From positions 71,985 to 135,984 of the forward strand of contig JAUYSY010000029.1 in assembly GCA_030696155.1 (NCBI GenBank): a stretch of 64,000 bases of DNA. Direction: 5' to 3'. The notes beneath the pieces are model-generated. The model was given only the letters and a program-made list of their open reading frames with translations, made no database searches and had not been told where the DNA came from. Of this stretch, positions 1-64,000 are shown piece after piece; within the stretch, counting starts at the first letter, position 1; every line of letters begins with the position of its first letter. The position numbers were made by a program, and so were the translations under genes. Source of the stretch: Alphaproteobacteria bacterium (GTDB lineage: Bacteria; Pseudomonadota; Alphaproteobacteria; JAUXUR01).

Positions 1-4
1 ATCA

Positions 5-168
5 TATACCCAAATAATCTGAAACTACCATTTTTAGTCGATGATCTTTGGCTGCTTTTTGAACCAAAAATTCCTAAGGTAAAACAATTATCTGTCATAA
101 TTTTTGGCATCAAAAATCATCTCAAATCTCATGCCTAAAAATCTGCATTTCCAAACCATTTGGGTATA
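5..168. mobile_element. MITE-like dispersed repeat, copy 1 (164 bp; TIR TATACCCAAAT/ATTTGGGTATA)
   Basis: Perfect 11-bp terminal inverted repeat with TA ends; colinear diverged second copy at 19448-19612. Confidence 0.7.
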
Positions 169-196
169 GCTTCCTTAAATAAGTTTCTTTTTTGTT

Positions 197-1975
197 TTAA
201 AAAGCAGCATCTTCCAATGAAAACTGAACGCCACCGCGAAAATTGTCAATCTTCAATTGGCCTGCAATGTGACATTCTTTACCAAAGGCATCTTTTAAAT
301 TGCGGCCTAAACTTGTATCGGCCGCTTTAAAAGCAATTGCATTTAAGAAATGCTCTTTTCCAAATTTTTCCTGCTTAAAAAGAAGTCGTAATGTGTTTTT
401 TGCTAATTGATCAATTTTAACCAAACGCATTTTAGGAATCACCAAACGTGGTGATGGGTTGCCTGATCCAAAGGGGCCTAGTTTTTCTAAATGTTTCACA
501 AGATCAGGCGTAAGGGCTTCTGTTAACAAAGTTGCATCAATTTCAAGTGGCGGATTATAAGGCGGATAAGGATATTTTTCCTTCATGAAAGCCTTAAATC
601 TTGGAATTTGAGCTTCCTCAATGCTTAGACCTGCTGCCATATCATGTCCACCGCCTTCCAAGATGATACCTGTCTGCTTGGCAGCAATAATATATTTGCC
701 CATTTCAAAGCCATAGACCGATCTACCTGAACCTTTGCCGATGCCCTCGTTAATGGCAATGATAATGGTGGGTCGATGGTAACGATCTTTAAGACGACTT
801 GCTACAATACCAATAATACCTGGATGCCAATCATGATTGGCCACAATAAGAGGCCCAATTTCATCGCTTTCGCTTTCAGCAAGCAACATGGCCGTTTCAA
901 CCATGCTTAATTCCATTTCTTGACGCTCTTTATTTAAAGAATCAAGATGTTGGGCAATTGATTGTGCCAGTGCCGGTTGATCCGTTGTTAGCAATTGAAC
1001 ACCAAGATCTGATTGACCAATACGACCGCCGGCATTAATACGAGGGCCCAACAAAAATCCTAAATGGTAAGCGCTTAAACTTTCAGATAATTTTGCAACA
1101 TCCGCTAAAATAGAAAGACCTAAATTTTGCCTTTTGCCCATGACTTTCAAGCCTTGGGACACAAAAGCACGATTTAAATCTTTTAATTTCATCACATCGC
1201 ACACAGTACCCAACGCAACAAGATCAAGCAGGCTTAAAAGATCAGGCTCAGAACGCGTTGCAAAAAAGCCTTTTAGTCGTAATTGACGATTGAGCGCAAT
1301 TAAAAATAGATAAGTTACACCAACAGCTGCTAGATTTTTGTGAGGCGAATCATCATCAAGCCTATTAGGATTAACAATCGCATATGCCTGGGGTAAAGAA
1401 GGTTCTGCTACATGGTGATCTAAAACAATAATATCGATTTTGTTGTCAAAAGCGTAGGCGATGGGTTCATAAGAAAGTGTGCCACAATCAAGAGTTAAGA
1501 TGAGTGTTGCACCTTGTGTGCGTAAGGATTTAAAGGCATTGATGTTGGGACCATAGCCTTCTTTAATGCGATCAGGAATATGACATAATATATTGATGTT
1601 TATGGCTTTAAAAAAGCGCATAAGAAGCGCTGATGAAGTTGCGCCATCGACATCATAATCGCCTAAAACTGCAATTTGTTCCTGATTTTCAATCGCTTTG
1701 ATGATACGCAAAACGGCTTTTTCCATATCCTGTAAATGATAGGGATCTGGTAAAAAATGACGCAAGGTTGGATTCAGAAAATGAGGGATGTGCTCAAACG
1801 CAATTTGTCTAGAGGCTAAAATATCACCTAAAATCGGTGGTAATCCATAGCTTTGCGTGATGGCCAGCGATAAACGTTCGTTTGATTCATTGCCAACCCA
1901 TTTGCGCCCTGAAAAGGAAGATTCAACCCCTAAAAAAGGGGTCTCAAGATCATGTTTGCGCGCGGGTAAGTTCAT
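197..1975 (-). CDS. recJ: Single-stranded-DNA-specific exonuclease RecJ
   Basis: DHH-family motifs GDYDVDG, LDCG, DHH, DLVALGTVCD, GPRINAGGRIG, GGGHDMAAG. Confidence 0.95.
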   Translation of the reverse strand: MNLPARKHDLETPFLGVESSFSGRKWVGNESNERLSLAITQSYGLPPILGDILASRQIAFEHIPHFLNPTLRHFLPDPYHLQDMEKAVLRIIKAIENQEQIAVLGDYDVDGATSSALLMRFFKAININILCHIPDRIKEGYGPNINAFKSLRTQGATLILTLDCGTLSYEPIAYAFDNKIDIIVLDHHVAEPSLPQAYAIVNPNRLDDDSPHKNLAAVGVTYLFLIALNRQLRLKGFFATRSEPDLLSLLDLVALGTVCDVMKLKDLNRAFVSQGLKVMGKRQNLGLSILADVAKLSESLSAYHLGFLLGPRINAGGRIGQSDLGVQLLTTDQPALAQSIAQHLDSLNKERQEMELSMVETAMLLAESESDEIGPLIVANHDWHPGIIGIVASRLKDRYHRPTIIIAINEGIGKGSGRSVYGFEMGKYIIAAKQTGIILEGGGHDMAAGLSIEEAQIPRFKAFMKEKYPYPPYNPPLEIDATLLTEALTPDLVKHLEKLGPFGSGNPSPRLVIPKMRLVKIDQLAKNTLRLLFKQEKFGKEHFLNAIAFKAADTSLGRNLKDAFGKECHIAGQLKIDNFRGGVQFSLEDAAF

Positions 1976-1986
1976 GCTTTTCTTCT

Positions 1987-2088
1987 TTCAAATTGTGGAG
2001 GGCGTCAGATTTCGGGATTCAGCATGCTCATGTATGAAGAGATACACTCCGCGTGTCTTACCACTCATCTTCCTACCCACATTTTGAA
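1987..2088. repeat. Short palindromic intergenic element
   Basis: Ends ttcaaattgtgg / ccacattttgaa; central ctcatgta..tacactccg core shared with the RPE-like family at 14808, 40460, 41500. Confidence 0.5.
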
Positions 2089-2093
2089 ATAAT

Positions 2094-62178: not shown

Positions 62179-62293
62179 TTCCTACTTTCAGCGACTTGTT
62201 CACGGGATCCAGAAAGCATTTGAGAGGTTTCTATAAATAGTTTATCTACCTTTTGCCGCATAGATCCCAAGGGACTTGACGTGGGAAGCAGGA
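62179..62293. repeat. Degenerate family R element
   Basis: ttcctact..gcgacttgttcacgggatccagaaagc; spacer resembles the 53190 copy. Confidence 0.7.
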
Positions 62294-62335
62294 GGATAGT
62301 AATGTTTTCAAGTTATTTAACTATAAAGAAAAATT

Positions 62336-62800
62336 ATGACAGAAAATAAGAATATTCATGTTTTGAGCCGGGCTGTTATTATTGACCAAGATCATATTTT
62401 GTTATGCAAAACGCTTGATCTTTCAATTAATTTTTATTTTCTTCCAGGAGGTCATGTTGAGCATGGCGTATCCGTTTGTGAGACAGTAGTTCGAGAATTG
62501 AAAGAAGAGAGTGGTGCCGAATGCACTATAAAACGATTCTTAGGGTGTCTTGAATATAGTTTTGAGCCAGGTCATAACAGCATATGCCATAATCATGAAT
62601 ATAATTTTATTTTTGAAGTTGAATCTAGTTCTTTAAAATTGAATATGATTATACCGCGTATCGAAGATCACATAGAGCTTATGTGGATACCTTTAACTAA
62701 AATTAGTGAACTTGACTTTAGGGCAGCACCATTTAAAACGCTCATTTTAGGATGGTTAGAGCATAAAATGAATGACGCTTTTAAAAGCGAGATGATATGA
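62336..62800 (+). CDS. NUDIX hydrolase
   Basis: FLPGGHVEHG..VVRELKEESG. Confidence 0.88.
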   Translation: MTENKNIHVLSRAVIIDQDHILLCKTLDLSINFYFLPGGHVEHGVSVCETVVRELKEESGAECTIKRFLGCLEYSFEPGHNSICHNHEYNFIFEVESSSLKLNMIIPRIEDHIELMWIPLTKISELDFRAAPFKTLILGWLEHKMNDAFKSEMI

Positions 62801-62828
62801 TGAACATAAATTATAATGACATGTTATT

Positions 62829-62945
62829 ATGAATGATTTTACGCATAGAAAACAAACAATCAAAGACTTAAGAACAATTGTGAGTCTTCTTTTAGAAGAT
62901 GATCTTGGACGTCACAATCAAAGATCATGGCATATATTATTATAA
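62829..62945 (+). pseudogene. Probable GNAT acetyltransferase N-terminal remnant
   Basis: MNDFTHRKQTIKDLRTIVSLLLEDDLG resembles R.AT..DL.AIVALLADD.LG GNAT starts, then stops after 38 codons. Confidence 0.5.
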
Positions 62946-63112
62946 AATTTATAATATTAATTTTTGATTAAGTTTTTGGATTAAACGTTTTTAAAATTTT
63001 AAAAAAATATATAATAAGCGCATTGGACTTATTCCAGCTTCCAGCAAAAACAATCGTCCTACAAATTTGACATTATGCAATTAATAAGAGATCCTTGAAG
63101 AAAGGATTTGTT

Positions 63113-64000
63113 GTGTTTTATATTGCCCTTAAAATGCTCATCGGAGATCGTGGTAAATTCCTAGGGATTATCCTTGGGATTGGCTTTGCATCCCTCATTA
63201 TGACACAGCAGCCTGGTGTATTTGTTGGCTTAATGACGCGTTCTTTTAGTTTTGTAACAGATATTGGCCTTCCAGATATTTGGGTCATGGATAAAAAAGT
63301 TAAATTTATTGATGATAGTAAAGCAATGCCTATTACTGCATTATATAGGGTTGCAAGTATTGAAGGTGTTTCTTGGGCAAAACCTCTTTTTAAAGGAAAC
63401 ATTCAAGTCAGATTAAAAAGTGGTAATTTTCAAAATTGTAATGTGATTGGTATCGACGATACAACCCTTATTGGGGGGCCTGCCAAAATGGTTCAGGGGA
63501 AACTTGAAAACCTAAGAAAGAGCGATTCTATTATTGTAAGTCTTGAAGGGGCAAATGATAAATTAGCTAATCCAGCATTAAAACCTGGGGGGCCCAAAAT
63601 ACCTTTGGCAATAGGTGATACGATCGAGATTAATGATAATCGTGCCTTTGTCGTTGGTATCGCAGAAACAACACGAACATTTCAATCACAACCTATTATT
63701 TTTACAACTTTTAGTCGCGCAAGTAAATTTGCGCCACCTCAACGCAATTTCTTAAATTTTGTTCTTGTTAAAGCAAAAGACCCATCAAAAGTAAAAGAAC
63801 TTACCAAAATGATTACTGAAAAAACAGGTTATGCCGCGTATACGGGTGATGAATTTAAAGATTTAACCATAGATTATATGATGAAATATACAGGCATTCC
63901 TATTAATTTTGGTATCTCTGTTTTATTAGGCTTTTTAGTGGGCGCAGCTATTGCAGGGCAAACATTTTATAATTTTACGATTGAAAATTTACGTTATTTT
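63113..64000 (+). CDS. FtsX/DevC-type ABC transporter permease (truncated by window end; not in ORF track)
   Basis: GTG start after aaagga; YIALKMLIGDRGKF, DIWVMD, GIPINFGISVLLGFLVG; open to the window end. Confidence 0.88.
   Translation, partial: MFYIALKMLIGDRGKFLGIILGIGFASLIMTQQPGVFVGLMTRSFSFVTDIGLPDIWVMDKKVKFIDDSKAMPITALYRVASIEGVSWAKPLFKGNIQVRLKSGNFQNCNVIGIDDTTLIGGPAKMVQGKLENLRKSDSIIVSLEGANDKLANPALKPGGPKIPLAIGDTIEINDNRAFVVGIAETTRTFQSQPIIFTTFSRASKFAPPQRNFLNFVLVKAKDPSKVKELTKMITEKTGYAAYTGDEFKDLTIDYMMKYTGIPINFGISVLLGFLVGAAIAGQTFYNFTIENLRYF

Follow-up and report, generated by a model that had tools for sequence, protein, structure and literature searches.

A 64,000-nt stretch of an alphaproteobacterial genome (the window; positions 71985-135984 of contig C56, JAUYSY010000029.1, in assembly GCA_030696155.1) carries numerous small palindromic repeats, which belong to a dense and recently active community of hairpin elements spread over the whole genome. 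These elements are of the MITE (miniature inverted-repeat transposable element) or REPIN (doublet of repetitive extragenic palindromic, REP, sequences) type. They use multiple insertion mechanisms, are filtered to the 3' ends of genes and include a REPIN derivative that targets its own family. In our favoured explanation, to which we give a probability of about 70%, the genome has been colonised by about ten families of non-autonomous MITE-like or REPIN-like hairpin elements that are moved in trans and survive after genes, their coding effects being by-products. The source genome (G000; 2.48 Mb, 135 contigs, 34.7% GC) was compared with that of a sister species (G001; 90 contigs), the sole same-genus genome compared, at 93-99% nucleotide identity; 708 kb of G001 sequence was used, and about 600 kb was aligned by chaining. 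All other relatives fall in different families, the lineage being isolated among the alphaproteobacterial genomes compared.

Comparison of the window with its own genome by blastn returned about 19 segments with 10-123 further matches each, and self-comparison of the genome gave 683 segments with at least five matches, representing 4.5% of the sequence. Clustering of the self-comparison segments, followed by nhmmer profile searches and removal of redundant copies, yielded about ten families of small hairpin repeats. In total, 668 non-overlapping copies cover 95 kb (3.8%). The window contains 21 copies (nhmmer E 1e-9 to 1e-71) and one more truncated by its start, that is 22 copies from nine clusters (f0, f1, f2, f3, f4, f5, f6, f8 and f11; Table 1), in line with a first-pass annotation that had counted more than 20 elements from at least seven families. 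The palindromic repeats of the window span 110-250 nt, and every copy there folds into a long hairpin (minimum free energy -22 to -94 kcal/mol). Family boundaries are sharp: f1 runs from TAACTATCC to GGGTAGTTA, f2 from TATAGTC to GACTATA, f3 from TTAGACTTC to GAAGTCTA, f5 from TATACCCAAAT to TTTGGGTATA, f6 from TATACCCAAATT to GGGTATA and f9 from TATAGTG to ACTATA. A core, TCGTCATTGCGAG...GCAATC, is common to f7, f8 and f11 (window examples at 13406-13534, 26994-27161 and 34010-34138), and 35-45-nt pieces of it match other alphaproteobacterial genomes at 89-92% identity. Rfam holds no family for any of the elements, whether the whole window is scanned at the gathering threshold or positions 40400-43300 at a permissive one. 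A full-text literature search with diagnostic 12-15-mers of the elements returned no relevant paper, nor did we find one pairing palindromic elements with Holosporales.

The elements have moved recently. Both flanks could be mapped in G001 for 118 G000 copies, of which about 72 are shared with the sister species and about 28-33 are missing from it or smaller there; it is this clean presence/absence at about a quarter of the tested sites that shows recent movement. Over the aligned sequence, dozens of indels of 60-350 nt occur in both directions, and 36 of them are clean, with an intact empty site. The most dynamic family is f0, 10 of its copies being shared and 13 absent. Two copies of the window, the f6 at 1971-2111 and the f11 at 26994-27161, are missing from G001, which has an f1 copy of its own at 19410/19429. 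A synteny break at the f4 copy 29837-30086 may stem from a rearrangement or from a join made at the repeat during assembly.

Comparison of empty and filled sites also reveals how the elements insert. A TA target-site duplication accompanies f5, f6 and f11, which end in TACCC...GGGTA or TAGTG...GACTA, as seen at a handful of clean sites, some blurred by later mutation (f11 26994-27161, f6 at C53:6761, f5 at C56:10154 and f5 indels i13 and i34). Longer duplications of 5-9 bp were found at indels i10 (8 bp), i3 (9 bp), i27 (8 bp), i31 (7 bp) and i25 (5 bp), the duplicated sequences being TAATTTTT, ATCAATCAT, GTTCCACA, TTATTAA and TCATA. Since duplication patterns differ by family, at least two or three insertion chemistries operate.

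The f0 family is built as a doublet of two inverted units, TCCTACGT-CCCGCG-loop-CGCGGG-ATCC, each of about 30 nt, with a spacer of about 55 nt. Genome-wide, 180 such hairpin units make up 68 convergent pairs (median 116 nt) and 44 singlets. A 201-223-nt derivative, f0-L, adds to the f0 core extra arms ending in the terminal inverted repeat (TIR) ATATCATTACCCATAAGTAT; it is represented by 17 complete pairs and 85 ends, and some pairs carry f4, f7 or f3 plus f4 inside. CCGCGG (at most one mismatch) lies within 10 nt outside, past a 2-nt spacer, at 32 of 49 well-matched f0-L ends, and further f0-unit sequence flanks 34 of the 49. CCGCGG occurs 316 times in this AT-rich genome, 178 times inside f0 units. 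Being found mostly within f0 hairpins, this target causes f0-L to pile into f0; f0 thus creates landing sites for its own derivative. The nesting described by the first-pass annotation is found at 5222-5836 and 38384-38760, and its proposal that one element parasitises another is borne out by f0-L, which inserts into the CCGCGG of f0 hairpins. In the first cluster, the flanks GGATCCCGCGGACAAG-CCGCGGG / f0-L 5373-5720 / CCGCGGG-ACGTAGGAGG restore an intact f0 arm, with CCGCGG(G) duplicated; in the second, the f0-L at 38413-38633 itself carries an f0 doublet (38447-38573). We infer the f0-L target duplication from such flanks because the empty site, sought in G001 at both clusters, was not recovered: other families occupy the spacer there and the regions are unalignable.

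Most copies lie between genes, and many sit at stop codons, two features already read from the window. For 309 of the 668 copies (46%), an open reading frame (ORF) of at least 100 aa ends inside the element or at most 40 nt before it. With its terminal TTA, f1 provides a TAA stop in nine cases (ten ORFs stop there, one with TGA), and the terminal TAG of f2 is the stop codon in six. The gene gaps holding copies are convergent in 147 cases and divergent in 54, against a background of 258 and 234 (p = 8e-7).

Element-coded peptide is real but marginal. NuoM certainly bears a 48-residue element-coded C-terminal tail, supplied by f1. In 80 homologues and in all relatives, the protein stops near residue 490-505; the G001 protein has the same 582-aa form (98% identical) and, beyond G001, only distant relatives were found, at 69% identity or less. 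Translations of other f1 copies share 50-58% identity with the NuoM segment. An f3 copy has, again with certainty, inserted between the ATG and the cleavage site of a pseudopilin whose leader reads MINLKKSIKS-(48 f3-coded residues)-SG/FSLLEV. No start codon lies between f3 and the cleavage motif, and therefore the leader must contain the element sequence, which prepilin peptidase probably removes. A second prepilin-type gene has an f3 copy just upstream (C115:3430-3593). In all, f3 is found at the 5' end of two of the four prepilin-type genes of the genome, for a rough chance expectation of about 0.002. At glpX, the empty site in G001 proves that f6 rewrote the tail (...SNYTKYA-stop in G000, ...SNYHYELTRAQT-stop in G001, that is ...HYELTRAQT-stop), and the insertion uncoupled the glpX/recJ overlap. 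DUF1674 is an ambiguous case, since the f0 element is directly followed by a GTG start: the ORF is open from an ATG right after the upstream stop, whereas the GTG would give a 53-aa protein spanning the whole domain. An ORF at 33949-34305 (118 codons) is made of f3 and f8, has no family match and is probably spurious. The earlier observation of in-frame elements is upheld by the nuoM tail, the pseudopilin leader and the rewritten glpX tail, with DUF1674 left ambiguous.

The f1, f2, f3, f6 and f9 families differ at their ends and have a hairpin tip in common, CG-RAGTGTA-N7-8-TACATGAG...TGACG. This apex motif gives 185 matches, versus 2 in a reversed-sequence control, and all but one fall in these five apex families. 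The tip is strand-asymmetric and 65 nt long (GGTTTTC-GAGAA-CCGG...GTGTAC-loop-GTACATGAG..CCGG-AAGCGCA-GAAAACC). When the whole class was searched at the DNA level, genomes of other families matched the f1 tip at 82-90% identity, and f3- and f6-like copies were found in full length at 72-80%. The arms in seven such genomes are of unrelated sequence but still complementary to each other, while the 65-nt tip is 82-90% identical and its unpaired GAGAA and AAGCGCA loops are invariant. In the tip alignment, 95% of cells pair and 11 of 19 pairs have changed on both sides; in a DNA palindrome, such changes show that pairing has been maintained and need not imply an RNA. With a covariance model of the f1 tip (R1), matches were obtained in 33 of 401 sampled alphaproteobacterial genomes, often with at least 13 copies each. 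Eight genomes of 6-7 Mb, all of one genus, matched at up to E 1e-20, and there were weak matches outside the class. The tip occurs on plasmids of Phyllobacterium, Sphingobium, Shinella, Novosphingobium, Agrobacterium/Allorhizobium vitis, Bosea, Ensifer and Rhizobium, and the matches almost never overlap an annotated feature; R1 had no match in 80 nuoM loci of named organisms. At least one family core is therefore widespread in Alphaproteobacteria, including free-living rhizobia and sphingomonads, and for it the lineage-limited picture first drawn from the window is not supported. The apex families are also strand-biased, both with respect to gene direction (f1, 15/66; f3, 8/36; f1-f3 pooled, 36/142, p = 3e-9) and to local GC skew (apex families pooled, 70/212, p = 9e-7); f0, f4 and f7 show no significant bias relative to GC skew (84/183). 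The two biases are confounded, and f6 is opposite to the other apex families relative to genes.

No mobilising enzyme is encoded in the window, as the first-pass annotation had stated: searches for IS630, IS110, Y1_Tnp and DDE_Tnp_4 found no match there and a Pfam scan of 20 ORFs showed no transposase. Elsewhere, genes or pseudogenes of the IS630, IS110, IS5 and Y1 families are present. The IS630 transposase gene is intact only in G001 (C82; 327 aa, 168.8 bits). G000 has an orthologous copy with three stop codons on C29, plus fragments. This insertion sequence (IS) ends in TATACCCC.../...TTTGGGTATA, also written TATACCCCGAGTG... and ...CTTTGGGTATA, and shares only 7-10 terminal bases with f5 and f6 (TATACCCAAAT...). 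One IS5/DDE_Tnp_4 pseudogene is present per genome; the terminal repeat of the IS5-like pseudogene at C128, TAATAGAGCTCTTGCATAAC, agrees with the consensus end of f3 at 13 of 19 positions and with the f3 variant C2:4372 at 16 of 20. Two intact IS110 genes are found in each of G000 and G001. As the driver of CCGCGG targeting, IS110 has no support: the two G000 loci hold no CCCGCGG and no IS110 locus holds an f0 unit. The Y1 (PF01797) search of G000 gave only an IS200-like pseudogene with one in-frame stop on C127, plus fragments; with no f0 unit on that contig, a RAYT (REP-associated tyrosine transposase) driver of f0 was rejected. Long multi-copy repeats of G000, considered as possible IS elements, proved to be genes for leucine-rich repeat (LRR), TPR/Sel1 and other repeat proteins. 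Separately, an IS481-like transposase ORF (helix-turn-helix and DDE integrase-type core; L093:7209-8240) runs off the end of G001 contig C23, next to rpsD (window ~8158), a site without insertion in G000; the end of this element, TTAGTGCAATTTGATAATGTCC, matches none of the families.

In the favoured explanation, transposases encoded elsewhere in the genome, or now lost, would move the elements in trans, and insertions would survive mainly in short spacers after genes. AT-rich targets, including TA, TAA and TAG, would be common after genes and a hairpin harmless there, which would account both for docking at stop codons and for the low number of copies in divergent promoter gaps. Several insertion mechanisms would coexist among the families. 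IS630 is the likely driver of f5, f6 and f11, because their termini (TA-TACCCAAA...) resemble IS630-family ends; f3 has ends similar to the inverted repeat of the IS5/DDE_Tnp_4 element, and f0-L would insert specifically at the CCGCGG of f0 hairpins. An element landing in the last codons or in a cleaved leader with its frame open would be tolerated and translated, as in the tails of NuoM and GlpX and the leader of the pseudopilin, the extra peptides being presumably neutral.

The peptides could instead be central, the elements being adapted to coding genes and a significant source of new peptide, as in a version of the Rickettsia palindromic elements (RPEs) richer than that of Rickettsia itself. 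The NuoM tail conserved in the sister species, its resemblance to the translations of other f1 copies, the in-frame f3 of the pseudopilin leader and an f0 copy that is exactly 141 nt long and leaves the frame of the DUF1674 ORF open would all fit. However, of the 668 copies a single one is flanked on each side by 60 or more ORF codons, and five by 30 or more; C-terminal tails of 20 residues or longer number only three in the genome; stops interrupt five to six of the six frames of the consensus sequences, and no frame is open in more than 36% of the copies of any family. The share of copies inside coding sequence already seems to be below 2%. In-frame copies account for nearly half of the total in Rickettsia, where each family encodes a conserved peptide (PMC10969869). 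We therefore regard this explanation as very unlikely. The first-pass annotation had placed its emphasis here; of its interpretation, the multi-family palindrome ecology, the stop docking, the nesting and the targeting of one element by another hold, and RPE-like protein writing shrinks to a marginal effect. Slightly less improbable, though still unlikely, is that the repeats are chiefly RNA hairpins that serve the host by stabilising 3' ends or terminating transcripts; selection would maintain them, and recombination or gene conversion, not transposition, would spread them. The abutment of 46% of copies on gene 3' ends, their enrichment in convergent and depletion in divergent gaps, the orientation of f1 and f3 relative to transcription and the conservation of the tip across orders are what one would expect of them, and similar roles are known for REP, ERIC, Correia and SPRITE repeats (PMC10969869). 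On the other hand, the two sister species show clean polymorphisms between insertion and empty site, with duplicated targets, the same spacer is filled by different families in the two species, and copies are nested in one another and in coding leaders.

Several observations weigh against movement in trans by transposases of the kinds considered above. No family is tied to an enzyme by more than 7-17 shared terminal bases, and G000-specific insertions exist, yet G000 has no intact IS630, IS5-like or Y1 gene. The REPIN-like f0 has no RAYT in the genome. Multi-copy IS elements may, since both assemblies are fragmented, be hidden at contig ends. The duplications of f1, f3 and f7 are inconsistent from site to site. 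Five families conserve the hairpin tip and not the ends, although transposase-bound MITE ends predict otherwise, and these families are strand-biased, which is not expected of DDE-type MITEs. For the apex families, an enzyme or process might recognise the strand-asymmetric tip, for instance on single-stranded DNA during replication, leaving the arms free to diverge as long as they pair. Such recognition would lead to five arm-divergent families in one genome and to a strand bias. The near-confinement of the apex motif to these families, whose tips align while their ends differ, and the bias that f0, f4 and f7 lack are consistent with it; a tip conserved from an intracellular-type lineage to rhizobia and sphingomonads, with wholly different arms, points to tip rather than end recognition. 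Nevertheless, f6 duplicates TA and has termini like those of IS630, gene orientation is confounded with GC skew, the f6 bias relative to genes is opposite, no candidate enzyme was found (the sole Y1/HUH gene is the IS200-like pseudogene, without flanking elements), and tip conservation could reflect a selected RNA or terminator function. We consider tip recognition in these five families a minority possibility, to be taken seriously. The wider proposal, that a pan-alphaproteobacterial class of mobile hairpins has the tip as its functional core, with an enzyme that recognises the tip and not the ends, possibly on single-stranded DNA, is put forward a little more tentatively still.

Table 1. Elements and element-bearing genes of the window (positions in the window).
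Feature	Position	Strand	Remarks
f5, ~165 nt, ends TATACCC...GGGTATA	1-176 (truncated by window start)		Downstream of recJ stop; 45 genome matches; -40.9 kcal/mol; 89% identical to 19446-19603
f6, between glpX and recJ	1971-2111	-	Absent in G001; gives last 4 codons and stop of glpX; abuts recJ ATG; nhmmer E 1e-43
f0 REPIN-like doublet, two inverted CCCGCG-loop-CGCGGG units	5222-5371	+	Right arm is target of f0-L; 98% identical to 38442-38565
f0-L, TIR ATATCATTACCCATAAGTAT	5373-5720	+	In CCGCGG(G) of f0 right arm; f4 inside (5373-5621); flanks GGATCCCGCGGACAAGCCGCGGG / ... / CCGCGGGACGTAGGAGG
Duplicated target and rest of f0 arm, then second partial f0-L right arm and degenerate REP end	5722-5827	-	
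f8 hairpin (TCGTCATTGCGA...GCAATC type)	13406-13534	-	Intergenic; E 1e-25
f1 with conserved apical module (14838-14900)	14795-14936	+	R1 70.5 bits
f2, weak copy	16913-17037	+	E 2e-14
f5	19440-19622	-	Intergenic; additional f1 copy adjoining in G001
f11	26994-27161	-	Absent in G001; empty site is a single TA; filled site xA-TAGTG...GACTA-TA
f4, 250-nt hairpin	29837-30086	-	-94 kcal/mol; G000/G001 synteny break at this copy
f8	34010-34138	-	Gap between oppA-like and oppB-like genes
f3	34137-34300	+	Same oppA-like/oppB-like gap as f8 34010-34138
Nested cluster: outer f0 split at CCGCGG by complete 221-nt f0-L (38413-38633)	38384-38760		f4-type element here in G001
f1	40454-40590	-	Between RNase J and birA-like genes
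f1	41486-41627	+	Between nuoN stop and birA-like start
nuoM, 582 aa	43072-44820	-	No stop in tail until ATGA overlap with nuoN
f1, translated as NuoM residues 529-576	43092-43236	-	
f0, half unit	51325-51416	-	Edge of 1.07-kb G000-only segment
f0 doublet, 141 nt, in 5' part of DUF1674 ORF 53027-53341	53178-53328	-	Open in frame
f3, in frame in leader of pseudopilin gene 54124-54807	54620-54789	-	Between MINLKKSIKS and SG/FSLLEV
f0 doublet, degenerate	62166-62334	-	Intergenic

The genes of the window include recJ, glpX, nuoL/M/N, a birA-like gene, RNase J, an Opp/Yej-type ABC transporter, pseudopilins of type II secretion system type and LRR proteins (25660-26907 and 47983-49149). A TLC-family ATP/ADP translocase is encoded at 55546-57057 (Pfam E 5.5e-163). 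Such translocases are a marker of energy-parasitic intracellular life, and because of it the lifestyle of this isolated lineage appears to be intracellular. Contigs C47, C104 and C97 of G000 encode LRR proteins with long conserved C-terminal domains as well as large TPR/Sel1 and other repeat proteins; repeat proteins of these kinds are typical of host-interacting bacteria. Other length differences and repeats were seen along the window. A 1,074-nt segment (50436-51509) with a 284-aa ORF without Pfam match is present in G000 and not in G001, with a half f0 unit at its border. At 9793/9802, G001 has a 1.7-kb insertion (L093:3772-5421) encoding a protein of 549 aa, signal-like at its N-terminus and with a region resembling hydrolases, a strain-specific effector-type gene. 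Tandem paralogous genes for small signal-peptide proteins (28235-28531 and 28872-29159, ~70-79% nucleotide identity) lie in a region whose length differs between G000 and G001. Finally, the ORF 60653-60943 (96 aa) contains seven in-frame 21-nt tandem repeats (60638-60840) encoding (DPxNPNQ)n.

Two points go beyond the routine. A REPIN-like family with a derivative aimed at the CCGCGG of its own hairpins forms a self-reinforcing insertion sink, and a tip module is conserved across lineages. If tip recognition is true, it would offer a handle on long-unexplained rhizobial intergenic palindromes. The rewriting of NuoM, GlpX and a pilin leader is, by comparison, a rare by-product at protein termini. 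In addition, the sister genomes constitute a natural experiment: with about one clean insertion difference per 15 kb and some ten families, one can measure directly how small mobile hairpins choose their targets, nest and are filtered by fitness.

Among known systems, the elements resemble the TA-duplicating MITEs (Correia/nemis, ERIC and RUP; IS630/Tc1-mariner-type), which have 100-250 nt, terminal inverted repeats, a long hairpin, dozens of copies and intergenic or 3'-end positions. Like these, f5, f6 and f11 duplicate TA, and the genus has an IS630-family element that shares 7-10 terminal bases with f5 and f6. In contrast to such MITEs, about ten families coexist here with at least three kinds of target duplication, five of them conserve the tip and not the ends, and G000 is without an intact cognate transposase. 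Insertion of elements into one another is also described for the pneumococcal BOX, RUP and SPRITE repeats (PMC10969869). With REPINs, the REP doublets moved by RAYT tyrosine transposases, f0 has in common its two inverted GC hairpin units; unlike REPINs, it has no RAYT, the only Y1_Tnp match being the IS200-like pseudogene without flanking f0, and it has a longer derivative with its own terminal repeats that inserts at CCGCGG with an apparent 6-7 bp duplication, in a DDE-like manner.

The likeness to RPEs lies in palindromic repeats of about 105-150 nt, in several families, in an intracellular-type alphaproteobacterium, with occasional in-frame translated copies in housekeeping proteins (NuoM). 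In-frame copies amount here to about 1% or less, against nearly half in RPEs, and most families have no conserved open frame; this comparison is one of traits, not of RPE consensus sequences, and no RPE models were found in Rfam. Rhizobia carry intergenic palindromes of unknown function, namely RIME, Sm-repeats and AB/C palindromes (PMC2573895). The f1 apical module is likewise multicopy in the eight 6-7 Mb alphaproteobacterial genomes of one genus, and rhizobial lineages with described palindromes bear it on plasmids (Phyllobacterium, Agrobacterium vitis, Shinella, Ensifer and Rhizobium), a likeness by description and not by published repeat sequences. Unlike the rhizobial repeats, the module is here embedded in lineage-specific arms and in five diverged families.

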